A stretch of DNA of 64,000 bases, from the NCBI GenBank assembly GCA_046290465.1, contig JBKAGP010000001.1, positions 5,056,001-5,120,000 on the forward strand, in the 5' to 3' direction. Made by a program: the position numbers and the translations under genes. Below the pieces are notes generated by a model. It searched no databases and was not told the DNA's origin. It saw nothing but the letters and a program-made list of their open reading frames with translations. This document shows, piece after piece, positions 39,747 to 58,326 of the stretch. Numbering within the stretch: position 1 is the stretch's first letter; every line of letters begins with the position of its first letter. Source of the DNA: Planctomycetota bacterium (GTDB lineage: Bacteria; Planctomycetota; UBA1135; UBA2386).

Positions 39747-39822
39747 TCGTGAGTTGCCCTGACCGGGCTAGTTCGAATCGGGCCGACTGATTACGTTGCG
39801 TAGCCCTCCGAGGAGAATCGTC

Positions 39823-42800: not shown

Positions 42801-43950
42801 CTCCTCGCAGGTCGGCACCGAGCCGTTCGGCGTGCGCATCGACATCGTGCACACCGACGCGGTCGGCCGCGAGAGCGGTGGCTTCCAGAAGTACGCGACC
42901 AACCAGAACAACATGCAGTACGCGTACAACTACGGTCGCCCGACCGAGAACTACCGCGACAAGTTCCACGACGCCGCGATCGCGTCGCTGCAGGAGAACT
43001 TCGAGATCCTCAGCGCGACGTTCAACAGCGAGAACATGGAGCCGCTGCAGGGCGACGAGGACGGCTGGCAGCGCACGCCGTATGCCTATCTGTTGCTGCA
43101 GGCTCGCGGCCCGCAGGTCGACCGCATCCCCGAGGTGAAGCTCGACCTCGACTTCAAGGACACCACGGGCTTCTTCATCATGCCCGTGGTCTCGTCGCCG
43201 GTCGCGGTCGACGCGTCGCGCGAGCAGCTGCAGCGGCCGTTCGAAGGTCTCGAGGTGTCGCAGCTGCTCGACGAACGCAAGGTCGACGAGGGCAAGGTGA
43301 CGCTCGAGATCAAGGCCAAGAGCGAAGGCCTGGTGCCCGACCTCGAGGACATCCTCGAGCTGGAGACGCCCGGCTTCAAGGTCAGCAAGATGGACGACCA
43401 GGGGGCCGCGGTGGTGCGGTTCTCACCCGACCAGGACGCGATCGAGAGCGAGCGCGTCTGGCTGATCGCGCTCGAGCCGGAGAGCGCGGGCGCGAGCCCC
43501 GGCAGCTTCCGCTTCGGCCAGCCGAAGCTGGACGACATGAAGACGACCTACCAGCGCTACGACGACGCCGACCTCGAGACGGTCACCGCCGAGATCGCGC
43601 TGCGGCGCGGGCCGATCGGCTCGAACCCCTGGTGGGCCTGGCTGCTGCTCGGCGCTGGCGCGGTGCTCTACCTGGTGTGGTTCTTCTTCGCCAAGCCGGC
43701 CGACAGCGCGCCGGTCGAGGACGTCGCCGCGCTGCGCATGCCCGAGTCGGTGACGCCGTTCTCGGTGCTGGCGCTGCTGCACCAGATCCGGATGCGCGGC
43801 GACTTCGTCGACGAGCAGCGCACGTTGCTCGAGGTCGACATGCGCCGCATCGAGGCCGGGTACTTCGACAAGGCCGCCGAGGCCGCCGAGTCCGGCGAGC
43901 GCGCCGACCTCGAGAAGATCGCCCGCCACTGGCTGAGCAAGGCGAGCTGA
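39823..43950 (+). CDS. Large secreted/membrane-anchored protein heading the Bat-like operon
   Basis: AGGAG RBS, signal peptide, QPGG low-complexity linker, long helical region, C-terminal TM. Confidence 0.8.
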   Translation: MRANLLLLSAGVLALGGVLPAQNPTPVIELPTGIDPADLPPEVRARLEQMQAQGAQGPQGQQPAAGNNAQDQKQAAEAAKLQKRLVAFKKLVFDRRPSSILKAWAQPELKPYDPKEEEKKGKDGKPAGGAAQPGGQPGGQPGVQPGSQPGTQPGTASPTTTGSALQPSSRAIRISRTSSGATLTAPARPAATTTPAQPVATGTPSSTPSSSSSSAMSPAQIQALIDAETGGKPAEAQPAANGAAAAAAPAGPKADPALEAKILQRELEMLQRDVTLSRWDEVAKFFDTLAEKDRKGAYEHFLKTLLRHPNKPPSRLPANLQEKNRFSFDEAFVLAGMAPGGFDKQQAKLLGPIVQRAMDGGGVREEWIRLLGIEVGKAKETRRVDRREAALILSALNMNDELGAFLPTASQAEKNDDREAFNLLARHALAMYAKDNRGDWLETAWEVTQAALAKGEIQKAQKEEALRRAVDLAPKVRAELGPAWLEKSFTERPERGMEIVATIGGQVASGFATQARNASYRATGLKLQKTAVEALLATAPKLADEWKETLELLAAGWVQEASHSNRYSKTTSYGSYMERDSFGNVYWTNRRMGGGGQVTAIEPEDLLESQPSDRWASLLGADLRPNFTTVSAQLWLKVNEYDKAFPYIERLATTNGRKAKELADEFLRVWKRNNNPNASNRGSNYIYVYGFSDRANSIPLTRSKQERNLKELSDYVARLRALPMEPVDANLLTEAFVAAHSLAEVYQLDTIRQVFGEISELDPIVLGQLIGRMRMNLATVWRTPSVQQQAKTRRSQKEMMQEVANGYATALKLAQDSLISRGRHWSLLTAVATLLHDQNNFKKEIMPDSSFSEVRKGAFELLAEAADHYASVCADMTRNEETDTVFTSWFYAALGASDLGAIDETMVVANSQLPRIKEAMEALPDGSRERMQARFANLLFTRMSSVKPDIKFRYLKAGFEITGDHEQTKKAREVWQYYQDLIGEIRLEVVVDGSSQVGTEPFGVRIDIVHTDAVGRESGGFQKYATNQNNMQYAYNYGRPTENYRDKFHDAAIASLQENFEILSATFNSENMEPLQGDEDGWQRTPYAYLLLQARGPQVDRIPEVKLDLDFKDTTGFFIMPVVSSPVAVDASREQLQRPFEGLEVSQLLDERKVDEGKVTLEIKAKSEGLVPDLEDILELETPGFKVSKMDDQGAAVVRFSPDQDAIESERVWLIALEPESAGASPGSFRFGQPKLDDMKTTYQRYDDADLETVTAEIALRRGPIGSNPWWAWLLLGAGAVLYLVWFFFAKPADSAPVEDVAALRMPESVTPFSVLALLHQIRMRGDFVDEQRTLLEVDMRRIEAGYFDKAAEAAESGERADLEKIARHWLSKAS

Positions 43951-44007: not shown

Positions 44008-45009
44008 ATGACCGCTCCTGAAGCCCCCGCCGCCCGTTTCACCGAGACGCGCGAGTTCCTCGATCAGATCAAGTCCAAGGTCGGCACCGTCGTGGTCGGT
44101 CAGGACGTCGTCGTCGAGCGCGTGCTGATCGCGCTGCTGACGTCCGGCCACCTGCTGCTGCAGGGCGTGCCGGGCCTGGCAAAGACGCTGCTGGTCGCGG
44201 CCGTGTCGAAGACGGTCGACCTGGCGTTCGCGCGTATCCAGTTCACGATCGACCTGTTGCCGTCGGACATCGTCGGCAGCGAGATCCTCGACCAGAAGAC
44301 GCACGAGTTCCGGATCCACCAGGGCCCGATCTTCACCAACCTGCTGCTCGCCGACGAGATCAACCGCGCCGCCCCGAAGGTGCAGTCGGCGCTGCTCGAG
44401 GCGATGCAGGAGCGTCGGGTCACGATCGGCGGCGAGAACTTCGCGCTGCCGGCGCCGTTCCTGGTGATCGCGACGCAGAACCCGGTCGAGCAGGCCGGCA
44501 CGTTCGAGCTGCCCGAAGCGCAGCTCGACCGCTTCATGCTGCTGCACCGCCTCGAGTACCTGAAGCCCGAGGAAGAGAAGGAGGTGCTGCGCCGCAACAC
44601 CAAGCTGGGCGTACGACGTGAGGGCAAGGGCGCGGTCGCCCGCACCGAGTTCGACGTGCTCGACGGCCAGGACAAGGGCAGCGTCAAGCAGCTGGTCAAG
44701 GCGATGGAGGACGTGCAGGAGGTGCACGTCAGCGAGACGTTCATCGAGCACGTGATCGAGATCGTCAACCGCACCCGCAACCACCCGCTGCTCGAGCTCG
44801 GCTGCAGCCCGCGCGCCGGCATCTCGCTGGTCAAGGCTTCGCGCGCCCGCGCGCTGATCCACGGTCGCGACTACGTCGTGCCGGAGGACCTGTTCGCGCT
44901 GGCCGAGGACGTCATCCTGCACCGCATCCGCCTCAGCTATGAGGCGGTCGCCGACGGCTACACCAGCCAGCAGGTCCTGCAGGAGATCCTCAGCGAAGTC
45001 GCCAAATGA
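44008..45009 (+). CDS. moxR: MoxR-family AAA+ ATPase
   Basis: GVPGLAKT, RIQFT.DLLPSDI.G, LADEINRA, ATQNPVEQ.GTF.LPEAQLDRF, SPRA. Confidence 0.95.
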   Translation: MTAPEAPAARFTETREFLDQIKSKVGTVVVGQDVVVERVLIALLTSGHLLLQGVPGLAKTLLVAAVSKTVDLAFARIQFTIDLLPSDIVGSEILDQKTHEFRIHQGPIFTNLLLADEINRAAPKVQSALLEAMQERRVTIGGENFALPAPFLVIATQNPVEQAGTFELPEAQLDRFMLLHRLEYLKPEEEKEVLRRNTKLGVRREGKGAVARTEFDVLDGQDKGSVKQLVKAMEDVQEVHVSETFIEHVIEIVNRTRNHPLLELGCSPRAGISLVKASRARALIHGRDYVVPEDLFALAEDVILHRIRLSYEAVADGYTSQQVLQEILSEVAK

Positions 45010-45962
45010 GCGGGGACGTGATCGACATGGGCGGTGGCGCGATGCCGCCGCCGCCGCCGCTGCCCCGCAAGCAGCGGCTCAGCATCCGCGAACGCGAGGC
45101 CAGCCTGCCCGGCATGCTGCCGGCCATCGAACCGTCGGCTGCGCGCAAGTTCGTGATCGCGATCCGTCGCCTGGCCGACGACCTCAGCTACGGACTCGAC
45201 GGTTCGCGCTTCCTCGGCTCGGGCATCGACTACGTGCAGTCGCGGCAGTACCTGCCGGGCGACCCGGTCAAGTCGATGGACTGGCGCGTCACCGCGCGCA
45301 CCAACCGCTACCACATCAAGGAGTACGAGGCGCAGCGCCGGATCCCGGCCTGGTTCCTGATCGACACGTCGGCGTCGATGGTGGTGTCGTCGACGAGGCG
45401 CAGCAAGTACGAGGTCGCGCTGCAGGTGGCCGGCGGGCTGGCGCTGGCGTGTCTCGATCGCACCAGCCCGGTCGGCGTGCTCGGCTGCGGCACGCGCGAC
45501 GTGCACATCCATCCGAGCCTCGCCAAGGACCAGGTGATGCAGTGGCTGCTGCGGCTGCGGCGCCACGCGTTCGACGAGCGCACGATGATGACGCGGCGGA
45601 TCCGCGAGCTGCGGCCGACGCTGCAGAGCCGTTCGATCCTCGTGATCCTCAGCGACCTGCACGAGCAGGGGGCTGCGCACAGCGCGGCGCTGCTGGCGCA
45701 GGAGCACGAGGTCGCGGTGATCCAGGTGCAGGACCCGGCCGAGGCGTCGCTGCCCGCCGGCGGCTTCCTGCGCGCGCAGGAGGCCGAGACCGGCCGTCCG
45801 TTCACCGCGCGCGGGCGCCGGCAGATGGTCGACCAGCTGCGCATCGAGAACGAGCTGCGCAAGGGCGGCGTCGACCACCTGATGCTGCGCACCGACGAAC
45901 CCTACCTGCACAAGCTGCGTCACTTCTTCCGCTCGCGCGGGATCTCGGGAGGCGGAAGGTGA
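45006..45962 (+). CDS. DUF58 domain protein
   Basis: GSGIDY..SRQYLPGDPV..MDWRVTAR, LIDTSASM, ILSD. Confidence 0.92.
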   Translation: MSGDVIDMGGGAMPPPPPLPRKQRLSIREREASLPGMLPAIEPSAARKFVIAIRRLADDLSYGLDGSRFLGSGIDYVQSRQYLPGDPVKSMDWRVTARTNRYHIKEYEAQRRIPAWFLIDTSASMVVSSTRRSKYEVALQVAGGLALACLDRTSPVGVLGCGTRDVHIHPSLAKDQVMQWLLRLRRHAFDERTMMTRRIRELRPTLQSRSILVILSDLHEQGAAHSAALLAQEHEVAVIQVQDPAEASLPAGGFLRAQEAETGRPFTARGRRQMVDQLRIENELRKGGVDHLMLRTDEPYLHKLRHFFRSRGISGGGR

Positions 45963-46774: not shown

Positions 46775-47695
46775 ATGTTCGCCCGTCCCTGGTTGTTGCT
46801 GCTGCTGGCGCTGCCGGTGATCCACCTCTACTGGGTGTGGGCGCGCCGCAGCGGTCGCTTCTCGATGCCGTTCGACTCCGACGGCAGCCGGCGCCTCGGC
46901 AGCGGCTGGTTGATGCGCGGCCTGCTCGGTATCGGCGAGTCGCTGCCGGCGCTGCTGTTCGCGGTTGCGATCCTGCTGATCGCGCTGCCGCAGGAACTGG
47001 CGGCGCCGAAGAAGAAGCGCGCGTTGACCAACATCCAGTTCCTGGTCGACATCTCCGGCTCGATGAGCGCGAAGTTCGGGGAGGGCAACCGGTTCGACGC
47101 CTCGATGAAGGCGATCGACGAGTTCCTGTCGTTCCGCGAGGGCGACTCGTTCGGGCTGACGTTCTTCGGCAACAACTACCTGCACTGGTCGCCGCTGACG
47201 AGCGACCCGTCGGCGCTGCGCAACGCGCTGCCGTTCATGGGGCCGGGCAACGCGCCGCCGGGATTCGGTGGCACCGAGATCGGCAAGGCCGTGCTGGGGG
47301 CCCGCGAGGTGCTGACCTCGCGGCCGGATGGCGACCGCATGATGATCCTGGTCACCGACGGCGACAGCCCCGACCTCGAAGGTGGCGCCGCGATGCAGAT
47401 CGCCAAGCGGCTGCGCGCCGACGAGATCCGGCTGTTCGCGATCAACATCCAGGACCGTGAGGCGAAGGCGCCGCTCGTCAACCTCGCCCGCACCAGCGGC
47501 GGCGAGGTCTGGAACCCCGGTGATCGCTCGGCGCTCGCCAACGTGTTCGCCGAGATCGACAAGATGAACAAGGCCAAGATCGAGCAGGGCACGGCCGAAC
47601 TGGTCGACTGGTTCTTCCCGTTCTGCGTCGCCGGCCTGAGCGTGCTCGGGGCGTTCGTCCTGTTCCTGCTCGGATGGAGGCACACGCCGTGGTAG
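46775..47695 (+). CDS. vWA-domain membrane protein (BatA-like)
   Basis: FARPWLLLLL N-terminus; MIDAS DISGSM, GGTEIG, VTDG. Confidence 0.9.
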   Translation: MFARPWLLLLLALPVIHLYWVWARRSGRFSMPFDSDGSRRLGSGWLMRGLLGIGESLPALLFAVAILLIALPQELAAPKKKRALTNIQFLVDISGSMSAKFGEGNRFDASMKAIDEFLSFREGDSFGLTFFGNNYLHWSPLTSDPSALRNALPFMGPGNAPPGFGGTEIGKAVLGAREVLTSRPDGDRMMILVTDGDSPDLEGGAAMQIAKRLRADEIRLFAINIQDREAKAPLVNLARTSGGEVWNPGDRSALANVFAEIDKMNKAKIEQGTAELVDWFFPFCVAGLSVLGAFVLFLLGWRHTPW

Positions 47696-48666
47696 CGCTC
47701 TACGTGGCGCTCGGCGTCTTCCTGGTGGCGATGATCGGCGAGGTGCTGCACGCACGTCGCGTGCACCGCGTCCGCCACCTGGTGTTCGGCCCGACCGGCG
47801 CGCCCGCGAAGTGGGCCGTGGTCGCGCCGTTCGTCCGGATCCTGTCGGGCAGCTTGCTCGCCTGGGGGCTGACCACCCTGATCTACGTCGAGCCGCAGGT
47901 GCACGCCGGCGAGGAGATCCCCGACGAAGAGTGGCGTCACCTGCTGCTGGTCTACGACGTCTCGCCGAGCATGCTGCTCAAGGACGCCGGCGCCAGCGGC
48001 GACCAGACCCGCCACGAACGTGCCCGCGAGCTGATCGAGTCGATGTTCGAGCGCGTCAAGATCGGCCAGTACAAGGTCACGGTGATCGCGACCTACAACG
48101 GCGCCAAGCCGGTGGTCACCGACACCAAGGACATCGAGGTCGTGCGCCACATGCTGAGCGAGGTCGACCTGCAGTACGCGTTCAAGGTCGGCAAGACCAA
48201 GCTGTTCGACGGCATCGAGGTCGCGTGCCAGATCGCCCGGCCGTGGCGCGTCAACAGCGCGCTGCTGGTGGTCGTCAGCGACGGCGACACGGTGCCGGCG
48301 ACCGGCATGCCCGAGCTGCCGCCGTCGGTCGGCGGCACGCTGGTCATCGGCGTCGGCGACCATCTGTCCGGCAGCTTCATCGGCGGCCAGCAGTCGCGGC
48401 AGGACGAGAGCACGCTGCGCCAGGTCGCGATCCGGATGGGCGGCGAGTTCCACAACGGCAACCGCCGCCAGGTGCCGAGCGACATCCTCGATGCCGCCGC
48501 CAAGGACTCGCGCAAGCCGCTGCTCGAGCAGCTGACGCTGCGCGAGTACGCATTGATCGCGGTGCTGCTGTCGTCGCTGCTGCTGGCGTTGCTGCCGGTG
48601 CTGCTGCACTACTTCGGCACCAGCTGGCGTCCCGGCGTCCCGGCGGCGCGTCGCGTCGCGGCGTAG
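47689..48666 (+). CDS. vWA-domain membrane protein (BatB-like)
   Basis: MIDAS DVSPSM, GKTKL, VSDGD; TMs at both ends. Confidence 0.88.
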   Translation: MVALYVALGVFLVAMIGEVLHARRVHRVRHLVFGPTGAPAKWAVVAPFVRILSGSLLAWGLTTLIYVEPQVHAGEEIPDEEWRHLLLVYDVSPSMLLKDAGASGDQTRHERARELIESMFERVKIGQYKVTVIATYNGAKPVVTDTKDIEVVRHMLSEVDLQYAFKVGKTKLFDGIEVACQIARPWRVNSALLVVVSDGDTVPATGMPELPPSVGGTLVIGVGDHLSGSFIGGQQSRQDESTLRQVAIRMGGEFHNGNRRQVPSDILDAAAKDSRKPLLEQLTLREYALIAVLLSSLLLALLPVLLHYFGTSWRPGVPAARRVAA

Positions 48667-48670
48667 GGCG

Positions 48671-49216
48671 ATGCCGTTCTCGACCGACATCGCGCTGCGC
48701 CGCGAGGCGGAACCGCGGTTTCCGTCGCAGTGCGTGCGGTGCCTCGCCGACGATCCTGACCGGATGAAGTTCTCCGGCAGCCGCTTCTCGTGGGCCGAGG
48801 TGTTCTTCTTCTGGCTGTGGCTGTTCCGCAAGCGCGTGCGCGTCGAGGTGCCGGTCTGCGACGCCTGCCGGCCGGCCGTGCGCTGGCGCAAGTGGCTCGA
48901 GCTGGCGGTGTTGCTCGGCGCGACGATCCCGGCGGTCGTGCTGCTCTACCCGTGGCTGAAGCAGTTCGACCTCGGCCGGCAGTGGAACAAGCTGATCGTG
49001 TTGGCCGTGGTCGTGGTCGCGCTGATGCCGTACTTCCTGTGGTCGGTGCTGCGGCCGCCGGCGTTCGACATCACGGTGCGCGACGAGGTCATCGAGTACG
49101 AGTTCGCCAACGCCGACTACGCCACGGTGTTCTGGGAGCAGAACCAGGAGATGGTCGAGCACGTCGAGGGCTTCGACGACGACGACGGCGATGATAACGA
49201 CGAGGAGCCCAGGTGA
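48671..49216 (+). CDS. Membrane protein with two CxxC motifs (Zn-ribbon-like)
   Basis: FPSQCVRC ... VPVCDAC, two TMs, acidic tail. Confidence 0.75.
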   Translation: MPFSTDIALRREAEPRFPSQCVRCLADDPDRMKFSGSRFSWAEVFFFWLWLFRKRVRVEVPVCDACRPAVRWRKWLELAVLLGATIPAVVLLYPWLKQFDLGRQWNKLIVLAVVVVALMPYFLWSVLRPPAFDITVRDEVIEYEFANADYATVFWEQNQEMVEHVEGFDDDDGDDNDEEPR

Positions 49217-49638
49217 GCGGGGAGCCGCCGCCGCTGCCGAAGCCCCGCACCGGTCGCAGCCGGGCCGGGGTCCTGCTGCAGATCGGCCTCGTCGTCGCGC
49301 TGGGGCTGCTGTCGCGCCGCTTCCCCCTGCCGGGAATCCTTGCCGAGCACACCGGCGACGCGCTCTATGCGGTCGCCGCCTACTTCGCGACCGCGTTCGT
49401 GTTCCCGGCGGCGTCGCGGCCGGCGCTGGTCTGTGCGGCGTTTGGCTTCAGCGCGGCGGTGGAGTTCTCGCAGATGCTCAGCTGGCCGTGGCTACGGGAC
49501 TTACGTGCAACTCGGCCGGGCGCGCTGCTGCTCGGGCAGGGCTTCCAGCGGGCCGATCTGGTCGCCTACGCGATCGGCGCGGTGCTGGCGGGGCTGGGAG
49601 ATCGTTGGCGCCCACACCGCGACGAACCGGCGCCGTAA
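49213..49638 (+). CDS. DUF2809 family membrane protein
   Basis: GDALYA, AVEFSQ, LLLGQGF..DLVAYAIG. Confidence 0.8.
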   Translation: MSGEPPPLPKPRTGRSRAGVLLQIGLVVALGLLSRRFPLPGILAEHTGDALYAVAAYFATAFVFPAASRPALVCAAFGFSAAVEFSQMLSWPWLRDLRATRPGALLLGQGFQRADLVAYAIGAVLAGLGDRWRPHRDEPAP

Positions 49639-49723: not shown

Positions 49724-50437
49724 ATGCGCAACATCCTGCTGGTCGGATGGCTCCTGCTCCCTGTCGGGGCGTGGGCCTATCACGAAGGGCCGGGCCAGGA
49801 TCGCGTCGCCCTCGAAGAGGCGGACGCGGTCATCCTGGCGGCCCACCAGGCGGCGAGCGACGGCGACTGGAAGGTCGCCATCGCCGAATACGAAGCCGCC
49901 CTCGAGAAGCTGCCGAAGGACCCCGATGCCTACGACAAGCGCATCGCGCAGCGTCTGCAGATCGAGCTCAACAAGGCTCGCATGAAGTCGGAGGGTCTGA
50001 TCGAGGCCCGCGACGAGCTGGCGACGCTGGTCGAGCAGATGCAGGGCGAGGAGGACAGCGACCCGTCGCTGCTCCGCGATGCCCGCCAGGCCCTGGCCCG
50101 CACGCAGTTCTACAAGACGTGGCTGATGCGGCTCGAAGGCCTCGACCGCAAGGTCTGGGAGCCGGAGATCGAGGCTGCTCGCCAGAACTGGCGCCTGCTG
50201 GCCGAGACGGCCGCGAGCGACACCGAGAAGACGCTGCACCAGGAAGACCTGGAAGCGGCCGTGCGCCTCGCCCGCCTGGAGATGGAGGACCTGCAGGGCC
50301 TGCCGCTCCCCGGCGAGTGAGCAGGTTGAAAGAGCGGTAACAAGGCCGGTCGGCCTCGTAAGAGCAAGAGCAAGTCGAAGGGTAAGCCGAGCAACGGCGC
50401 TGGTTCGGGTCCGAAGTTCGGACGCGGCGGATCCTAG
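49724..50437 (+). CDS. Bat-operon helical (TPR-like) protein, predicted selenoprotein with UxxU motif (TGA at 50318 and 50327)
   Basis: Frame continues LPLPGE-TGA-AG-TGA-KSGNK...GRGGS to TAG at 50435-50437. A SECIS-like hairpin follows the TGAs and the terminator lies after the TAG. Confidence 0.75.
50343..50356 (+). promoter_or_regulatory. Putative bacterial SECIS element
   Basis: AGGCC-GGTC-GGCCT; loop is 27 and 18 nt downstream of the two TGAs. Confidence 0.62.
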
Positions 50438-50480
50438 CCCCCAGATTCGTATCCCCTCGATCTCCTACCTGTTTCCACAC

Positions 50481-50514
50481 ACGAAAACGCGGCCCATTGG
50501 GCCGCGTTTTTCGT
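50481..50514. terminator. Bidirectional rho-independent terminator
   Basis: AAAACGCGGCCCA-T-TGGGCCGCGTTTTT between convergent genes. Confidence 0.88.
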
Positions 50515-50563
50515 TGTACGGCGCGTTCGCCGATCCGGTTGCGTCGCGCGGTCGCGCCGCCGG

Positions 50564-53500
50564 CTACCTTGCCGGCGGGTTGATCTCGCGGATCACCGCG
50601 CCACGCTGTTCGTCGAGCACCAGCACCGCGTAGCGGGTCGCGCCGCGGTTGGGGTCGTCGGACAGGCTGACGTAGTCGAAGCGGCCGCGCAGGTCGGTGT
50701 AGCCGTCCTTGTGGAAGCGCACGGTGCCGTTGGGCAGGCGCGCGAACACCTTCACGTAGGTGCGTGACAGCGGCTTGTCGGTCTTCGGCTCGCTGACCGC
50801 GACCTGGCCGTAGGACTCGAGGAAGCGCACGTCGAGCGCGTTGGCGAAGTACTGGCGCGAGCGCACCAGGCCGCCGGCGCGGACCTCGACCAGCACGTTC
50901 TTCTGCCAGAACTGCTGCGGCAGTTCGTAGGCGAGCTGGGTGCCGCCCTTGGGCAGCGAGCGGGTCTCGCGGAAGTTCGGCTTCACGAACGCGGCCGAGG
51001 CCCCGTCCGGGCCGGCGAACGGCTGCGCCGAGAACGCGAACTCGACGTCGAGTTCGTAGTAGCGCACCTCGACCTCGCTGAGGTTCTTGTAGCTGACGGC
51101 GACGTCGCGGCCCTCGACCGCCAGCTCCAGCGCCGGCGCGGTCGCCGCCAGCGTCGCCGGCGTCTGCTCCTCGGCCTGCGGGCGCGCCTTGCCCTCGGCC
51201 TCGTCGAGCTGCGTCAGCACTTCGCGGAAGCGCTTGCGCCAGTGCATCGCGACGTGGTCCTGGTGGGTGCTGGCGATGCGCCGCGCCTTCTGCGTGTCGC
51301 CGGTGAAGAAGCACAGGTAGGCCGACAGGTAGTCGTACCGGACCCGGGCCTCGATGCCGTTCGGGTCGATCTCCGCAAAGGCCTCGAGCGCTTCCTCGAC
51401 GCGGTCCTGCAGCAGGAAGTAGTAGGTGACCGCGAGCCAGTCCGCGCTGTCGAGTTTCGGCCGGTAGCCGAGCAGTTCCATCAGCGATGCGTACTGCTTG
51501 GCCAGGTCCTGGTTGCCGAACACGCGCTGGCTGCCGAGCTGGTGGGCGCGCTGGTGGACCAGCGGGCTCAGCTCCAGGTGCTGGAAGCGGGCGCGTTCCT
51601 TCGGATCGATGTTCGCCAGCGGCGACTCGAGCCACGTGCCGCACTGGTCGAGGAAGTCGTCGCGGTGGCGCAGGTAGTCGGACGTCGCCTGCGCGTCGCG
51701 GTGCAGCAGCGAGTACGACCACAGGGTCGGGTCGAACGCGTGGCGCTGCTGCAGCTTGGGCAGCACCGCCTGGTAGAACGCGCGGTCGCGCATGCGCCAG
51801 GCGATCTTGCTCAGGTCGAGGCGCTGCACGTTGTGGCCGTCGAGGAACTCGAGCACCTCCTGCGGCGAGCCCTGCTGCGAGACGTGCTCCCACGACGTCG
51901 TGTCGATGCGGCTCGGCTCGGCGACGACCTTCAGCGTGCGCGGCGTCGCGAACGCGGCCAGCTTGCCGTTCTCGGCGGCGTGCACCGGGTAGTGCGCGAA
52001 GCGGCCCTCGGACGGGAAGTAGAACGAGTACTCGATCGTCTGGGTCGCGTACGGCGCCAGCGCGACCTGGCGGCCGCGGGTCCAGAAGCCGTTCTGCAGC
52101 GGCACGGCGCCGGCCGGCACCTGCAGCAGCACCTCGGCCGTGCGCAGGCTCGACGTCGGGTTGGTGACCACGACCTGGCAGCCGTAGGCGACGTCGACCA
52201 GGAACTCGTCGGTCACGAACGCATCGCGGCGCTTGCCGTCGACGAATCGGTAGCGGTCGTCGAGGCGGAAGAAGTTCTGTCCGAGCAGCAGCGGCTCGGC
52301 TTCGTTCGCCTCCTCGGTCGGCGCGATCTCCTTGCGCACCAGCAGCAGCGGCGTGGCCGCCTTCATCGTGGTGCCGTAACCGTCGGCGGTGACCTCGTGC
52401 GCGCCGGCCTCGAACGGCAGGTCGAGCACCGCCAGCGCGAACATCATCTCGACGAAGCTGTTGCTGGCCTGCACCAGCGCCGGCGACACGAACGGCTGCC
52501 CCGGCCTGGCGGACGCGAAGTCGAGCCAGAACTGGTTGGCCTGGATGGCGTCGGTGGTCGGGTTGCTGATCTTGCGCTGCCAGTAGTTGTGCTCGACCAG
52601 CAGGCGGGTCTTCTCGACCGCGGTGTAGAGGCGACGCACGCTCTTGCGTTGCTGCATCTCGAGGCCGAGGTGGCGGACCGCGCCGCCCTCCATCTCCTCG
52701 AGCACCTCTTCCTTGCTGGCCTCGTTGCGCTCCTCGGCGACCCGCTTGCTGTCCTTGCTCTTCTTGGCCATCTCGGCGGCCTTCTCGGCGGGTGCCGGGC
52801 TGGACGGGCCGGTGGGGCCGCCGGTGGTCGGGCCGCCGGTGGTCGGGCCGGCGGTCGTCGGACCGGAGGGCCGGCCGGCGCTGAGGCGCGGCGTCTGGTT
52901 GGGTTCGCGGGCCGGCGCACCGTCCGCGTTGCGACGCATCTCGAGCAGCTGGCCGAACGACTTGTCGCGGCCCTCGGCGTCGAGCGCCTCGCTCAGCAGC
53001 GACAGGTCGAACAGCTGCGCCAGCTGTTCGGTCGTCATCGGGCGGATCTCGAGCGCCTCCTTCAGCATGCGCGCGACCGCCGCCGGCTCGTCGCCGCCGA
53101 TGCGCCGCGCGAGCAGGATCTTCTCGACCAGGTTGAGCCTGGCGAACCGCCACGGCTCGAGGTAGCTGCGCAGGTCACGTTCGAGCAGCCACTCGTCGAG
53201 GAACGTCTTGTCGAGCTTGTTGGCCAGGAACGGTCGCACCACCGTGCGGAAGAACTCGGGGTCCTTCTGGTGCAGGAAGAAGTGCAGTTCGTGGCAGGCG
53301 TGCTCGCCGTAGAGCTCGAGCTTGCGGTCGCGGGCCAGGCCCGGCCACTCGAGCACGAACGCGAACCGCTGCAGCGATGGATCATTGCGGATCGTCGTGA
53401 ACAGCTGGAACGCGCTGCGCAACGAGTCGTGCACCTCGACCTCGGCGGCGCTCTGGGCGTCGAGCGCCACCTCGGCGCCGGCGGCGACGAACTCGATCCG

Positions 53501-56500
53501 CCGCGTCTCGATGAAGTGCCGGTCGTTGGCGAGCGCCTTCGGCAGCACGCGCGAACGCGGCTCGAGGCGGGTCTCGGCGCGCGTCGTCGTGTCGTAGACG
53601 GCCTGCGCGCCGTCGAGCGCGATCACGTGCACGTGCTGGCCTTCGCCAAGCTGCGCCAGCGGGATCGTCACGACGCCGTCGTCGTCGGGCGTCAGGTTGC
53701 TCAGCAGGCGCGAGCCTTCGGGCAGGTAGTCGAGGTTGGCGCTGACGCCGGCGTTCGGGCCGCCCTGGCCCTGTGCCAGCGCACGACGGTCGACGCCGCC
53801 GCCGCGCCGGCCGCGCGTCCGCCCGCCGAACTTGCCACCGCTGCCTCCGCCGAGGCCGACCGCGGAGTTCCAGGAATCCTGGTCGAGCTCCATCGGGTTG
53901 AGCAGCAGGCTCGGGCGGTCGAGCATGTTGCCCGGGTACTTCTTGGCGAACCGGCGCTCGAGCACGTAGCGGTATTCGTCGCTGAGCTTGCGCCCGGCGT
54001 CGTAGCTGCTGGCCAGGCGGTCGAGCGGCATCACCGCCGGGCCGTCGCCGGCCATGCCGCGCAGGCCGTCGAACAGGTCGTAGGCCGGCAGGTAGCGGGT
54101 CGCGACGACGTGCACGCGGGTGCCTGCCGTGGTGTTGGCGAGCTGCACGCGCACCGCGTCGTCGGTGGTCTGCAGATCGACCACGTGCAGCGGGCGGGTC
54201 GGCGTCGCCGACAGTGCGCGGTCGCTGCCGATCAGGTAGCGGTCGTCGCGTTCGCCGCGGGTGATGCGCACGGTGACGCGCTGGTCGGTCGCGTGCAGGC
54301 GCAGCTGGTAGTCGCCGGGCGGCAGATCGCGCAGCTCGACGAAGCCGTCGGCGATCGCCAGGTGTTCGAACGCATCGCGGTTGTTGCCGAGCAGCGAGAA
54401 CTCGGCGCGCGTCGGCGCGGTCTCGTCGCCCTGGTAGGGGATCCGGATCGTGCCGCCGGTGGTGCCGTGCAGCTCGCCGGGCAGGCGCACGCGCGCGTCG
54501 GTCAGTTCGAAGGTGCCGCCGCTGCCGCCGTCCTTGGTGACCTGCACGCGGTAGATGCCGGGCAGGCGGCCGAGCGTGATGCGGCCGTTGTCGTCGGTCT
54601 GCAGCGCCACCTGCACCGCTTCGCGGTAGTCGCGGTGGAACAGGTTCATCCGGCAGACGCGGCCCCGCTGCGGTTCGCCGCTCTTGCCGCGCAGCTCGAC
54701 GGCGTAGCCGGCGGTGGTGCGGACCAGCATCGGGATGCCGGTCTCGGCGGTCTTGTCGATCTGGTTGAAGTGGAACGAGTAGCTGCCGCCGGCGAGCGTG
54801 ACGGGCTTGCCGTTCATGCCCTGCACGCGGCCCGTCAGGCGGACGTCGAGGCGCGCCATGCGCGGCGGCACGCGGAACGCGTGGGTCAGCTCGCGGCCGT
54901 TGCGCAGCTCGAGATCGCGCACCTCCTGGGTGGTCGACTTGCCGTCGAGGTCGGTCGCGACGATCGTCAGCAGCGGCTGCTCGAGCAGTTCGAGCGAGAC
55001 CGGGTGGCCGGCCAGGTGCAGCTGGGTGCGCAGCACCAGGTTGGCGGTGTTGCCGGCGATGATCGACTCGCGGTCGACGTGCACGCTGCCCTGCAGCTCG
55101 TACGACTCGCCGCGGTGCGCGAACGGCGCGAGCGACGAGCGGTTGCCCTGGCGCAGCACCAGCTGCTTGTTGCCGGGCGCGGTCGAGAACGGCACCAGGA
55201 TCTCGCCGCGGTCGTCGGCGCCGTACTCCCGGCCGCCGAACCACGCGGTGGCGTCGGGCAGGTGTCGGCCGGCCTCGTCGTAGACCCGCACGACCTGGCC
55301 GGCGGCCGACGTGCGCTCGACCATGCGCAGCTCGCCCTTGTGCACGACGGCGCGGCTCGAGATGCCGTTGCCGACGAAGTCGACCACGTAGGTGCCGGGG
55401 TTGCGCAGCATCGGCAGGTCGAACGTCCGGCGCACGCGGCGCATCGGCGCGTCGTCGTACTGGAACGTCTGCTCGAAGTTGGCGACCACGCCGTCGAGGT
55501 CGATGGTCGCGTCGACCGACTTCTGCCGTTCGACGTGGTAGCGGAAGGTGTCGATCTCGAAGACCTTCACCAGCAGCGCCTTGACGTTCTTGGTGTCGAG
55601 CTCGAGGCGGACCGCGTCGTCGGCGCCGTAGGTGCGCTTCATGGTCGGCGGGAAGCGCAGTTCGACGCGCTTCTCGAGCTGCTCGAGGCGGGCCGGGTCG
55701 TCGAGCAGCGAATACCACCGTTCGGCGTCGCCGACGCCGGCCAGCAGCTTGGTCTCGGCGAGCACGGTCTCGAGCCAGCGCTGGTCGAGGTAGTCGCTGT
55801 AGGCCGCGACGGCGTCCTCGCCGACGAAGAAGTGCTCGAGGCAGGCGCGGACCAGCGCGGTGTCGGAGCCGATCGGATCGAGCAGCGTCGGATAGCGGCG
55901 GCGCAGGTCGACGTGCTCGGCGCGCTGCTGGAAGCGTTCGAGGTGCGCCTTGCTGGCGTAGCCGGTGCGGCGCGGCAGGCGGATGTAGGCGAGGAACCGC
56001 TCCTTGTCGGGGGCGCCCTGCATCAGGTCGTGGCGCAGCCAGTGGTAGAGCACGTGCGCCTTGAGCGAGTTGAACGACGGGCTCAGGCTGCGCACGAACG
56101 TCCAGACGCGCTGCAGGTGCTGTTCGCGCAGCTCGGCGTCGTCGTACCACGCCGTGTCGGCGTCCGGCTGCATGCGCGTCAGGTAGGCGGCGACGAACTT
56201 GCCGTTCTGCAGCAGGTCGCGGCGGAGCTCCAGGCACTGGTCCAGCTGGCCGCGGCGCAGCAGGCCGTGGATCTTGAGCGAGCCGAAGCCGCGGCTCTCG
56301 CGTCGCGACAGGTCGCGCACGATCAGCGCCGGCAGGTTGGGGACGTCGGGGCGGTCGAGACGGCGCAGCAGGCTGTGCAGCTGCTTGTCGTCGAGGTCGG
56401 CCGCGCACAGGCGCGCCAGCGCCGCGTCGGTGAAGCCGTCGACCGTGCCGCGGTGCCGGTTGAGCGCGCGCTCCGTCATGGTGGTCGGCGACAGCAGCGC

Positions 56501-56920
56501 CGGGTCGAGGCGCGTCGAGAGGTCGCTGCGCGCGCCGGGCACGATGCGCTCGTGCTGGAAGCGCAGGCCGAGCCGCTGCCGCAGGAAGTCGTAGGTCCGT
56601 TCCTGGTCGTCGCCGTAGCTGAGCAGCGCCTCGCGGTTCTCGATCTCGATGACGCGGTTGGTCCGACCGTGCCGCTTGATCCAGGTCGGCAGCACCTTGC
56701 GGACCGTTTCGAAGTCGCGCGCGTCGAGGCGTTCACGGCAGTGGTAGTCGTACCAGTCGGCGGTGCCCGGGATCAGTTCGGCGACGACGGCCGCCCGGTC
56801 CTTGGCCAGCGCATACGTCTCCTCGAAGCCGACGGGGATGCCCTGGGCCGTCAGCGCCGCCGAGCAGGCGGCGAGGGTCAGCAGGGCTGTGAGCGGGCGT
56901 CGTGGTGCGAATCTGGACAT
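50564..56920 (-). CDS. Giant secreted protein (~2118 aa), possibly alpha-2-macroglobulin-like architecture
   Basis: Signal peptide MSRFAPRR..CSAALTAQ; helical N-region, beta-sandwich segments (PGTYVVDFVGNG), C-terminal YVKVFAR..FHKDGYTDLRGRFDY. Confidence 0.8.
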   Translation of the reverse strand: MSRFAPRRPLTALLTLAACSAALTAQGIPVGFEETYALAKDRAAVVAELIPGTADWYDYHCRERLDARDFETVRKVLPTWIKRHGRTNRVIEIENREALLSYGDDQERTYDFLRQRLGLRFQHERIVPGARSDLSTRLDPALLSPTTMTERALNRHRGTVDGFTDAALARLCAADLDDKQLHSLLRRLDRPDVPNLPALIVRDLSRRESRGFGSLKIHGLLRRGQLDQCLELRRDLLQNGKFVAAYLTRMQPDADTAWYDDAELREQHLQRVWTFVRSLSPSFNSLKAHVLYHWLRHDLMQGAPDKERFLAYIRLPRRTGYASKAHLERFQQRAEHVDLRRRYPTLLDPIGSDTALVRACLEHFFVGEDAVAAYSDYLDQRWLETVLAETKLLAGVGDAERWYSLLDDPARLEQLEKRVELRFPPTMKRTYGADDAVRLELDTKNVKALLVKVFEIDTFRYHVERQKSVDATIDLDGVVANFEQTFQYDDAPMRRVRRTFDLPMLRNPGTYVVDFVGNGISSRAVVHKGELRMVERTSAAGQVVRVYDEAGRHLPDATAWFGGREYGADDRGEILVPFSTAPGNKQLVLRQGNRSSLAPFAHRGESYELQGSVHVDRESIIAGNTANLVLRTQLHLAGHPVSLELLEQPLLTIVATDLDGKSTTQEVRDLELRNGRELTHAFRVPPRMARLDVRLTGRVQGMNGKPVTLAGGSYSFHFNQIDKTAETGIPMLVRTTAGYAVELRGKSGEPQRGRVCRMNLFHRDYREAVQVALQTDDNGRITLGRLPGIYRVQVTKDGGSGGTFELTDARVRLPGELHGTTGGTIRIPYQGDETAPTRAEFSLLGNNRDAFEHLAIADGFVELRDLPPGDYQLRLHATDQRVTVRITRGERDDRYLIGSDRALSATPTRPLHVVDLQTTDDAVRVQLANTTAGTRVHVVATRYLPAYDLFDGLRGMAGDGPAVMPLDRLASSYDAGRKLSDEYRYVLERRFAKKYPGNMLDRPSLLLNPMELDQDSWNSAVGLGGGSGGKFGGRTRGRRGGGVDRRALAQGQGGPNAGVSANLDYLPEGSRLLSNLTPDDDGVVTIPLAQLGEGQHVHVIALDGAQAVYDTTTRAETRLEPRSRVLPKALANDRHFIETRRIEFVAAGAEVALDAQSAAEVEVHDSLRSAFQLFTTIRNDPSLQRFAFVLEWPGLARDRKLELYGEHACHELHFFLHQKDPEFFRTVVRPFLANKLDKTFLDEWLLERDLRSYLEPWRFARLNLVEKILLARRIGGDEPAAVARMLKEALEIRPMTTEQLAQLFDLSLLSEALDAEGRDKSFGQLLEMRRNADGAPAREPNQTPRLSAGRPSGPTTAGPTTGGPTTGGPTGPSSPAPAEKAAEMAKKSKDSKRVAEERNEASKEEVLEEMEGGAVRHLGLEMQQRKSVRRLYTAVEKTRLLVEHNYWQRKISNPTTDAIQANQFWLDFASARPGQPFVSPALVQASNSFVEMMFALAVLDLPFEAGAHEVTADGYGTTMKAATPLLLVRKEIAPTEEANEAEPLLLGQNFFRLDDRYRFVDGKRRDAFVTDEFLVDVAYGCQVVVTNPTSSLRTAEVLLQVPAGAVPLQNGFWTRGRQVALAPYATQTIEYSFYFPSEGRFAHYPVHAAENGKLAAFATPRTLKVVAEPSRIDTTSWEHVSQQGSPQEVLEFLDGHNVQRLDLSKIAWRMRDRAFYQAVLPKLQQRHAFDPTLWSYSLLHRDAQATSDYLRHRDDFLDQCGTWLESPLANIDPKERARFQHLELSPLVHQRAHQLGSQRVFGNQDLAKQYASLMELLGYRPKLDSADWLAVTYYFLLQDRVEEALEAFAEIDPNGIEARVRYDYLSAYLCFFTGDTQKARRIASTHQDHVAMHWRKRFREVLTQLDEAEGKARPQAEEQTPATLAATAPALELAVEGRDVAVSYKNLSEVEVRYYELDVEFAFSAQPFAGPDGASAAFVKPNFRETRSLPKGGTQLAYELPQQFWQKNVLVEVRAGGLVRSRQYFANALDVRFLESYGQVAVSEPKTDKPLSRTYVKVFARLPNGTVRFHKDGYTDLRGRFDYVSLSDDPNRGATRYAVLVLDEQRGAVIREINPPAR

Positions 56921-57117
56921 GGGTCTGGTCGGGTAGCGGTCTTGCGTTGGCGACGGGCGCGCCGGAGTGCGGCTCGATGCCACCGTCGGGAATTGTCGGG
57001 GTCCGAGCCGCGGCAGCAATGCGTTCCCGGGCTGAGGGTTCCGGGAAAGTTCGCGGCCGGATTGGGCTCGCATCGGGGCGGGCTGGACTGGGGCCTTCCC
57101 CCAACCCGGAGAATCCC

Positions 57118-58326
57118 ATGCAGATCTGCACGACGAACATCGTCCTCGGGCTGCTGGCGGCCTCCCTCCTCGTCTCCCCGTCCCTGCTCGCGCAGGAAGG
57201 CTCGGCCGACGCCGGGTCGATGGCGGCGATCGAGAAGGAATACGACGCCGCGAGCAGCAAGTGGATGGAGTCCTACCGCGCCGCGTCCAAGGACGAGCGC
57301 ACCAGGCTGATGGCCGAACGGCCGACCCCCGAGAAGTGGATGCCGCGCGTGCGCGCGATCCTCGACGCCAGCGCGGCCAGCGAGAACGGCTGCGCCGCGG
57401 CGGTCTGGATCGTTCGCGTCGCGCGAGCCAGTGGCGACGACCTCGGCCACGCGCTCGACGTGATGGCGGCGCACCACCTGGACAGCGACCAGCTCGGCGA
57501 CCTGATGGCGTCGCTGTCGCGCAACCCGTCGCCGATGGTGGGGCGGTTCCTGGACAAGGCCGAGGCGGCCGCCAAGGGCGAGATGCTGGCCAAGACGTGC
57601 TTTGCGATGGCGTCGCACCTGAAGTCGGCGGCGTCGACGGCCAACACGCTGAAGGACGCGACCGCCGAGGACAAGGAGCGCTACGCCGGCTACTACGGCA
57701 AGGAAGCGGTCGACGTGCTGTCGGTCGCCGACGCGGCTGCGCTCGAAGAGCGGGCGGCCAGCTACTTCGAGCGGATCCTCGCGGACGAGGGGATGAGCGC
57801 GGTCCCGCACTACCGCGAGACCTTGGGGGTGGCGGCGAAGAACAACCTGTTCGAGCTGCGCAACCTGTCGATCGGCAAGGTGGCGCCGGACATCGTCGGC
57901 GAGGACATCGACGGCACGCCGATGAAGCTGAGCGACTACCGCGGCAAGGTCGTGGTGCTCGACTTCTGGGGCGACTGGTGAGGCCCGTGCCGGGCCATGT
58001 ACCCACACGAGCGGTCGCTCGTGAAGCGTCTCAACGACAAGCCGTTCGCCCTGATCGGCGTCAACTCCGATCGTGACCGCGAGAAGCTCAAGCAGGTCAT
58101 CAAGGACAAGGGGCTGACCTGGCGTTCGTTCTGGAACGGCGGCAGCACCCAGGGGCCGATCTCGACCCGCTGGAACGTGCGCGGCTGGCCGACGATCTAC
58201 GTGCTCGACGAGCACGGCGTCATCCGCTTCAAGAACGTTCGCGGTGAGGCGATGGACAAGGCCGTCGACTCCCTGCTCGCCAAGCTGGAGAAGTCCGCGG
58301 GCGGCGATCAGGGCGGCGAGCGCTGA
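57118..58326 (+). CDS. TlpA/redoxin-family thiol-disulfide oxidoreductase, predicted selenoprotein (UGPC, TGA at 57979-57981)
   Basis: IGKVAPDIVGEDIDG..LSDYRGKVVVLDFWGDW-TGA-GPCRAMYPHE..IGVNSD..WNVRGWPTIYVLD in one frame (402 aa); signal peptide; SECIS-like hairpin. Confidence 0.9.
58006..58023 (+). promoter_or_regulatory. Putative bacterial SECIS element
   Basis: CACGAGC-GGTC-GCTCGTG; loop is 31 nt downstream of the TGA. Confidence 0.75.

Follow-up and report, generated by a model that had tools for sequence, protein, structure and literature searches.

Positions 49,724 to 50,437 (plus strand) of a 64,000-nucleotide stretch of a Planctomycetota genome (GenBank assembly GCA_046290465.1, contig JBKAGP010000001.1, positions 5,056,001 to 5,120,000; the whole stretch is called the window here) appear to form one gene. 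It would encode a 237-residue protein in which both of two in-frame UGA codons are recoded as selenocysteine (Sec) through a single selenocysteine insertion sequence (SECIS) hairpin. We assign this reading a probability of roughly 85%. That both UGAs are read as Sec had been proposed in an earlier sequence-only reading of the window, and the proposal is now supported by cysteine homologues, selection on the tail of the protein, covariation in the hairpin and co-occurrence with selA. As judged by sequence comparison, the protein belongs to a new, so far unannotated selenoprotein family, which is unusual in its double-Sec variants and its operon context.

The frame opens with ATG at 49724 and meets TGA at codon 199 (50318-50320, hereafter UGA-1) and again, past GCA GGT, at codon 202 (50327-50329, UGA-2). 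Another 35 in-frame codons follow the second TGA; beyond the TGA codons the frame reads KSGNKAGRPRKSKSKSKGKPSNGAGSGPKFGRGGS and closes at TAG (50435-50437), and full-length matches spanning the TGAs are found in other genomes. Re-reading the sequence confirmed every coordinate claimed earlier for the open reading frame, both TGAs, their CxxC spacing and the hairpin. Also borne out was the placement of the terminator behind the TAG. An 8-bp GC-rich stem (50488-50495 with 50499-50506), a 3-nt loop and T5 (50507-50511), all read by eye, make a probable intrinsic terminator at 50484-50511 on the plus strand; a consensus terminator scanner flagged none between 49000 and 51000. In relatives, a similar hairpin and T-run also lie 3' of the TAG. 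The predicted read-through product would yield a tryptic peptide spanning both Sec residues, LEMEDLQGLPLPGEUAGUK, and GKPSNGAGSGPK among its tail peptides.

A protein database search with the read-through product as query returned 1190 matches at E ≤ 1e-3, mostly from Planctomycetota and named at source, always for the truncated form, "hypothetical protein" or "tetratricopeptide repeat protein". For 118 of the 120 best database proteins, coverage of the query reaches 84% at most, and they end at or before UGA-1 (...LPLPxE). These gene calls favour an explanation in which the gene ends at the first TGA with 198 residues, and the downstream 117 nt are a 3' untranslated region or the relic of a Cys ancestor, with the hairpin as an untranslated-region or stability element. 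However, tail motifs are common to Cys forms across the phylum. Only two of the 120 proteins, P0058 and P0099 (234 residues each, 67% and 61% identical to the window protein), cover the full query. They end in ...LPLPKE-C-KG-C-CSCNGKKPSK...GKPSTGASSGPKFDTGGS, with Cys opposite both TGAs and a tail in common with the window protein, whose motif GKPSNGAGSGPKFGRGGS is conserved in both. LPLPxx is thus not where homologues end, since natural Cys forms run on as C-KG-C-CSC... with the same GKPSxGAxSGPKFxxGGS tail. The Cys-rich tail after LPLP that the sequence-only reading had mentioned is therefore real. In terms of sequence, Cys opposite both TGAs together with a shared tail is the classical Sec/Cys signature.

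Whole genomes were searched in six frames with stops read through. A match was found in 51 of 401 genomes of a phylum sample and, at E ≤ 1e-20, in 153 of 301 genomes of an order sample. The best 150 of the 153 order-sample matches contained one TGA in 111 cases, two in 33, three in one (the third being the terminal stop) and none in five, one of which is partial. A profile search found 1105 representatives at E ≤ 1e-3 and 230 at E ≤ 1e-30. The C-terminal region was read in 79 loci, some of which are the same organism present in two collections; L041, L067 and L068, too short or partial, stand outside this set. UxxC was the most frequent form (25 loci), followed by UxxU (18), U-x5-U (13), Cys-only (12), vicinal C-U (8) and UxxT/S (2), and one locus (L080) had no Cys at all. 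A weak match in one further genome (G356, L077; E 6.5e-7), whose TGA looks like a true stop, was excluded from all counts.

By this comparison, the family is Planctomycetota-wide and its usual Sec form is UxxC, and the window holds a local, derived UxxU form. The double-Sec motif that the sequence-only reading had put forward for the family does exist, at 18 loci, but as a derived variant. The TGA-NNN-GGT-TGA pattern, spacer, hairpin and tail of the window recur in 17 other loci. At the positions of the TGAs, homologues carry CxxC (P0058 and P0099) or UxxC (the 25 loci), and a Cys-rich form reads CKGCCSGxC (CKGCCSGxCxC). In alignment A2, at least 90% of the 35 rows have Sec or Cys at the first position. 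The second varies over the family (C, U, T, S or N, or displaced), with Cys opposite UGA-2 in most relatives and TGC at this codon in the close relatives L059 and G461.

Translation beyond the TGAs was assessed in ten loci (nine UxxU loci and the UxxC relative L059), eight of which (seven UxxU and L059) have tails of equal length. Across the 35 codons after UGA-2, differences fall mostly at third positions, for example 2, 1 and 8, 1, 2 and 12, or 1, 1 and 11 by codon position. Among UxxU members the synonymous rate (dS) of the tail is 0.3-0.8, with the nonsynonymous rate (dN) well below; dN/dS is approximately 0.07-0.16 for nearer pairs and below 1 in all pairs with tail differences. The sole length change among the ten loci is one codon, TAG ends all ten, and similarity vanishes right past it, the terminator hairpin excepted. 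To the extent that comparison can show it, the double-TGA clade does translate its tail. The pattern excludes a stop at UGA-1 as well as one at UGA-2, as far as such comparison reaches. The conserved tail that had been asked about is likewise found, its motifs being common to Sec and Cys forms.

A gene ending at UGA-1 hardly accounts for a tail whose frame and stop are preserved, whose length varies by one codon at most and whose dN/dS is about 0.1 in nearer pairs, with similarity ending after the stop. Such a gene would agree with the unremarkable single-sequence fold of the hairpin and with the family members that have no Cys site, which suggest that a tail-less protein might work; overall we judge it very unlikely. 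Alternatively, only UGA-1 would be Sec and UGA-2 the real stop in the window's clade, giving a 201-residue product that ends in U-A-G and has no tail. UGA-2 lies just 18 nt before the loop, where delivery by SelB for the second time in three codons may work poorly, and position 2 is variable across the family (C, U, T, S, N). Yet purifying selection acts on the tail among the UxxU members themselves, the TAG is conserved, L059 and G461 share this tail although their codon 202 is TGC, and a spacer two codons longer in 18 of 18 UxxU loci puts both UGAs within 16-37 nt of the loop. We regard this alternative as improbable, if slightly less so than a stop at UGA-1.

The proposed SECIS-type hairpin occupies 50343-50356 on the plus strand, with AGGCC (50343-50347) and GGCCT (50352-50356) forming a 5-bp stem around a GGUC loop (GGTC in the DNA, 50348-50351), 27 nt after UGA-1 and 18 nt after UGA-2. 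On the window alone the hairpin is no more than chance would give; in the comparative data it is far more. All 58 UxxC, UxxU, U-x5-U and UxxT/S loci have, at a fixed distance, a hairpin with a GGUC loop and a stem of at least 4 bp, as against 0 of 13 TGA-free loci, a distribution that speaks against a gene ending at UGA-1. An ungapped alignment was made of 39 sites (33 distinct sequences), each locus being represented by whichever GGTC had the largest number of flanking pairs, a choice that favours pairing somewhat. Every sequence in it has C-GGUC-G and forms all five inner pairs (100%), and four of these five pairs show compensatory changes. The covariation score was 0.706 versus 0.226 when shuffled (0 of 500 as high), and slid partners reached at most 0.316. 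Stems include AGGCC/GGCCU, GCCGC/GCGGC, GCCCC/GGGGC, GGCCUC/GAGGCC and AGGUC/GACCU. The peptide encoded by the stem varies accordingly (AGRP, GRGRG, RPGRG, GLGRG; CCSGxC stands there in Cys forms) while the structure is kept, which points to selection on the RNA and not on the peptide.

The isolated hairpin folds at -8.2 kcal/mol, and masking the first 12-24 nt, much as a ribosome positioned on the UGA would, makes it the minimum-free-energy structure. The bSECIS model (PMC13188914) specifies a loop of 3-9 nt, a stem of 4-16 bp, a minimum free energy of at most -7.5 kcal/mol, a G within the first two loop positions and a UGA-to-loop distance of 16-37 nt, and the window hairpin lies inside all of these bounds (GGUC, 5 bp, 27 and 18 nt, -8.2 kcal/mol). 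In the C-U clade a related hairpin lies approximately 21 nt after the UGA, its GUU loop being closed by a G-C pair (GGUUC); RNAfold predicts it in 8 of 8 loci, of which 3 pass a strict ungapped test. The SECIS of Escherichia coli fdhF has GGUC in its apical loop. Like the hairpin proposed here, that element directly follows its UGA; it binds SelB, and its loop G lies approximately 20 nt off (PMC4605307). More generally, the conserved loop G is found approximately 20 nt after the UGA, and the SelB hinge tolerates differences in spacing (PMC4605307). Unlike the fdhF element, the present hairpins have stems of 5-7 bp and no evident bulged U, and in the window one hairpin would serve two UGAs 9 nt apart.

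The spacing of the hairpin differs among forms. Counted from the U of UGA-1, the loop begins at 30 nt in 18 of 18 UxxU loci, hence 21 nt from UGA-2, and in UxxC loci at 24 nt (21 of 25) or 30 nt (4 of 25). UxxU forms have two additional codons between motif and hairpin (GTKAG to NSGNKAG). Without them UGA-2 would be just 12 nt from the loop, and we infer that the extra codons keep it far enough away, an association that would reflect about two evolutionary events. In a tree of the protein body only (61 rows), nine UxxU rows group with L059 in a starred clade (SH-aLRT 99). This clade lies within a larger starred one of 16 rows (97), among whose members are the UxxC forms L022-L024 and L060 and the Cys forms P0058 and P0099. 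L059 and G461 combine TGC at codon 202 with the long spacer and the same tail, and their place within the UxxU clade is best read as a reversal or a polymorphism. The UxxU motif is a derived variant of two genera, with one further case that probably arose independently (L096, genome G524). This locus reads SQ-U-SG-U-SGGKGRGRG and has another type of stem and tail, with the loop again 30 and 21 nt from its UGAs. The all-Cys protein P0058 (CKGCCSC) is the starred sister (SH-aLRT 98) of the UxxC form L022 (genome G044), which suggests that Sec and Cys interconvert at position 1 among close relatives.

Two sister variants depart further from the window gene. In the U-x5-U clade (L025, L061-L066 and L097-L102; genomes G371, G473, G581, G477, G425, G419 and G450), the GGUC loop lies 21 nt after UGA-2 and 39 nt after UGA-1, and an additional 7-bp hairpin begins 8 nt past UGA-1, with UGA-2 itself inside its loop of 6 nt (UGAAAC or UGAGAC). 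This clade looks as if it has two tandem SECIS elements, the first of which is backed by one-sided changes only. The C-U form, found in eight genomes of one family (L069-L076), has a vicinal Cys-Sec pair (LPLPGG-C-U-QGSG...), and its true stop is TGA, followed by a very strong terminator.

The genome, a single 6.59-Mb contig, has the machinery for Sec insertion that the sequence-only reading called for: selA (453 bits), selB (354), selD (352) and tRNA-Sec (72.8) all score above curated cut-offs. The selD gene adjoins selA outside the window (G000:C1:1309619-1311945; L001, L002) and carries one in-frame TGA of its own, in the context ...SSAGU-AAKLPPG.... Across the phylum sample, selA exceeds the cut-off in 285 of 401 genomes. 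It is present in 31 of 32 genomes with TGA forms, the exception being 83% complete (G230), and in 6 of 12 genomes with stop-free forms; the cross-tabulation was made by hand and is given with no p-value, since related genomes are not independent. That TGA forms are nearly always accompanied by selA is a further point against a gene ending at UGA-1.

Read-through of leaky UGA codons exists in bacteria, and the UGAs could in principle be read as Trp, Cys or Arg by near-cognate tRNAs or through a lineage-specific codon reassignment. However, TGA is the real stop of the same gene, right after ...GSGS, in many relatives, so the codon is not reassigned, and selA and selB have no in-frame TGA. In addition, it is Cys and not Trp that stands opposite the TGAs, and the SECIS-type hairpin and selA both co-occur with the TGA forms. 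Decoding other than as Sec therefore seems very improbable. An assembly or sequencing error, with one or both TGAs really TGC or TGT, is extremely unlikely. TGA-NNN-GGT-TGA is found in eight metagenome contigs, in eight species-representative genomes of two genera and in one other lineage (G524). An independent DNA contig (X2, word depth 52) covers the stretch and differs from it at nine places, neither TGA among them; in the contigs of two RNA libraries (X15 and X16), which span both TGAs, the two codons are likewise unchanged. These are contigs and not raw reads, and RNA libraries can hold DNA, so transcription is not proven by them; X15 and X16 are partial and another contig, X7, ends at about 50244, gaps that carry no inference. 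The double TGA is thus kept in independent assemblies, as the sequence-only reading would have it.

Several observations weigh against Sec insertion at both codons, or against an essential role of the site. The evidence for it is wholly comparative. In the window, the stem has no more than 5 bp, shuffled sequences fold as well as the 58 nt that begin at the first TGA (z -0.8), and within those 58 nt, taken naked, the pair probability of the hairpin is just 0.14. When 50250-50560 was scanned with Rfam, no SECIS family matched, and the 12 hits obtained were weak and unrelated. The structure downstream of the TGA in the genome's own selD differs and has no GGUC hairpin, so no organism-wide SECIS consensus could be drawn. 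The loci compared are not independent, and since UxxU probably arose only twice, its association with the longer spacer amounts to few events. One hairpin serving two UGAs would require SelB to be re-loaded within three codons, and the efficiency reported for single-site Sec insertion in E. coli is 30-40% (PMC4513850). If this figure held here for each event, most chains would end early. A site essential to the whole family is at odds with locus L080, which has no Cys, and with a survey whose pattern classed 91 of 150 top representatives (59 remained unclassed), 22 of the 91 having no Cys within 15 residues after LPLP. Lastly, flank charges are the sole ground for the topology described next.

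The protein itself is predicted to be membrane-anchored and helical. A hydrophobic helix at residues 2-20 (49727-49783), seen in the AlphaFold2 model and in alignment A2, is a probable membrane anchor, and a conserved YHxGPGQ motif follows it. Next comes a TPR-like helical domain (residues 23-191, 49790-50296) that ends in LPLP, with a block-mean predicted local distance difference test score (pLDDT) mostly above 90. The model, built with a 35-sequence alignment, has a mean pLDDT of 84, with residues 199-237 below 50. The assignment to TPR-like proteins agrees with a profile match to consensus TPR proteins (E 9e-6), a match to Pfam TPR_14 below cut-off (E 0.0025) and a protein atlas in which only TPR clusters were found, one of them mostly from Verrucomicrobiota. 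Foldseek against the PDB gave weak, generic TPR and BamD matches only (best E 9.7e-3) and no functional lead. A thioredoxin-like fold was not encountered: the AlphaFold2 model is all-helical, and the motif lies in the segment with pLDDT below 50. The earlier description of U-A-G-U on a non-thioredoxin helical protein therefore stands for the fold, whereas the Sec pair is placed in a disordered tail behind the helical domain. The coding part of the basic, disordered 35-residue tail (residues 203-237) spans 50330-50434. Averaged over the family, the tail has 44 residues, 77% of them G, S, P, K, R, N or Q, and a net charge of +6; after LPLP the window protein has a net charge of +10. The mean flank charge of the helix is +1.6 on its N side and -1.1 on its C side (58 sequences), which weakly suggests an N-in/C-out orientation with the TPR domain and tail in the periplasm.

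Taken together with the comparative data, the favoured reading implies the following mechanism. SelB and tRNA-Sec would recode both UGAs to Sec, with the single hairpin at 50343-50356 directing both insertions from distances that are both within the published 16-37 nt range, and translation would end at the TAG at 50435, just ahead of the terminator. The resulting Sec199-Ala-Gly-Sec202 would sit on a flexible tail, tethered by the TPR scaffold to a membrane complex, probably on its periplasmic side. The first Sec or Cys would be the reactive residue and the second its resolving partner, and a UxxU pair could form a diselenide. The selenol/thiol pair would then be a redox-active centre or one that handles chalcogen or metal. 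Since position 1 is conserved and position 2 variable, a reactive selenol or thiol with an optional partner fits better than a fixed metal-chelating pair, although Cys-rich forms (CKGCCSGxCxC) may keep a metal-binding role open.

We next compared the family with described selenoproteins. In NCBIfam (release 20.0) the protein gave only a 17.5-bit noise match, and in Pfam only sub-threshold TPR matches. As far as it was examined, a 119-family selenoprotein table (2026, PMC13188914) has no TPR, MoxR, vWA or Bat entry. It lists UxxU for a Prx-like thiol:disulfide oxidoreductase, the NF041115 metal-binding protein and the TIGR02605 FmdB family, and UxxxxU for one family (PMC13188914). The accessible portions of a 2022 selenoprotein review and of the Global Ocean Sampling (GOS) paper do not mention the family, and in two possibly incomplete GOS 2008 supplement files the GLPLP and WEPE motifs matched only other families. 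The literature covered, mostly outside subscription journals and exclusive of the planctomycete candidates in PMC4807772 S9, contained no report of it. The earlier claim of a candidate new selenoprotein family accordingly agrees with the lack of a Pfam or NCBIfam model and of a fitting entry in the part of the PMC13188914 table examined.

Known bacterial UxxC and UxxU selenoproteins resemble the present family in their in-frame UGA, their Cys homologues, their CxxC-type spacing, the occurrence of two Sec residues in a few families, and a stem-loop just downstream in the coding region with a G at the start of the loop. The present family differs from them in its TPR-like fold, in the placement of Sec in a disordered C-terminal tail and in its MoxR/vWA cluster. 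Moreover, no model of the listed families matches it, and it has five different Sec arrangements. Among eukaryotic selenoproteins, SelS and SelK have one membrane helix, a helical part and a disordered tail rich in Gly, Pro and basic residues that carries Sec; SelS recruits an AAA+ ATPase, and SelL has a UxxU that forms a diselenide. The analogy with SelS, SelK and SelL is one of working principle only: there is no sequence relationship, the Sec-insertion system is another one, and the topology here is probably periplasmic.

The gene closes a cluster, all on the plus strand, that resembles Bat (Bacteroides aerotolerance) operons. The cluster opens with a MoxR-type AAA+ ATPase (44008-45009; Pfam AAA_3, E 1.3e-62), followed by a DUF58 protein (45006-45962; E 3.3e-37), a 270-residue membrane protein, a BatA-like vWA membrane protein (46775-47695; Pfam VWA_2 and VWA; VWA_BatA_Lepto E 6e-18, below cut-off) and a second, BatB-like one (47674-48666; VWA_2, E 7e-8). 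Between these and the selenoprotein gene, two small genes (48671-49638) encode a 181-residue membrane protein and a 141-residue DUF2809 membrane protein. The immediate upstream neighbour is a VWA_2 gene in 17 of 19 related loci, in Sec and Cys forms alike; the other two upstream neighbours are DUF2809 in L058, as in the window, and a peptidase gene. Pfam and NCBIfam have no family for the 181-, 270-, 1384- and 2480-residue neighbours. The 1384-residue protein is encoded just upstream of MoxR (39796-43950, plus strand). Its motif ...FDRRPSxILxxW... recurs downstream of the selenoprotein gene in several other lineages (among them L027, L028, L033, L037, L040, L042 and L045), and it looks like a conserved partner with a permuted position in the cluster. 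Directly downstream of the selenoprotein gene are two giant overlapping open reading frames, one of 2480 residues on the minus strand (50564-58006), with no Pfam match, and one of 2022 residues on the plus strand (51242-57310).

The likeness to Bat TPR proteins lies in the succession of MoxR, DUF58, two vWA proteins and a membrane-anchored TPR protein. For BatC it comes from gene order and architecture, the NCBIfam matches to BatA and BatB being below cut-offs. In contrast, a Sec/Cys tail is not mentioned in the available parts of two Bat papers (PMC3557215, PMC5700661), which describe the TPR and vWA Bat proteins as a membrane or periplasmic complex of unassigned function. In Borrelia, the vWA domain of a BatA/B-type protein is periplasmic (PMC5700661). 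In the proposal of Tang et al., Bat proteins would serve to reduce oxidised proteins of the periplasm or to export reducing power, but bat deletion mutants of Leptospira biflexa showed no oxidative-stress phenotype, which counts against a redox role, and that study concluded that "Bat function remains elusive" (PMC3557215).

As a tentative idea, which we think possible but doubtful, the Sec/Cys tail could be the missing reactive centre of Bat-type complexes, a periplasmic arm passing on reducing equivalents, chalcogen or metal. The UxxU of the window's clade would then be capable of forming a diselenide, made through one SECIS used twice within 9 nt; the sister clade would place a UGA in the loop of an extra hairpin; and selenium supply would set the ratio of full-length to tail-less protein. 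A tethered arm that passes on reducing equivalents is the activity that Tang et al. postulated for Bat proteins.

If the favoured reading holds, a family present in about half of the order-sample genomes, with at least one in-frame TGA in 145 of the best 150 matches there, is mis-annotated as ending approximately 40 residues early. It would add to the bacterial selenoproteome a membrane-tethered family that is not thioredoxin-like and carries Sec in a disordered tail. Its natural series of forms (Cys-rich, UxxC, UxxU, UxxxxxU, CU and UxxT/S), which includes two UGAs on one hairpin and a UGA inside a hairpin loop, lends itself well to work on the evolution of Sec sites and of SECIS spacing. For Bat/MoxR-vWA clusters, the Sec/Cys arm would provide a first concrete hypothesis at the level of residues, and with it the first residue-level support for redox chemistry there.

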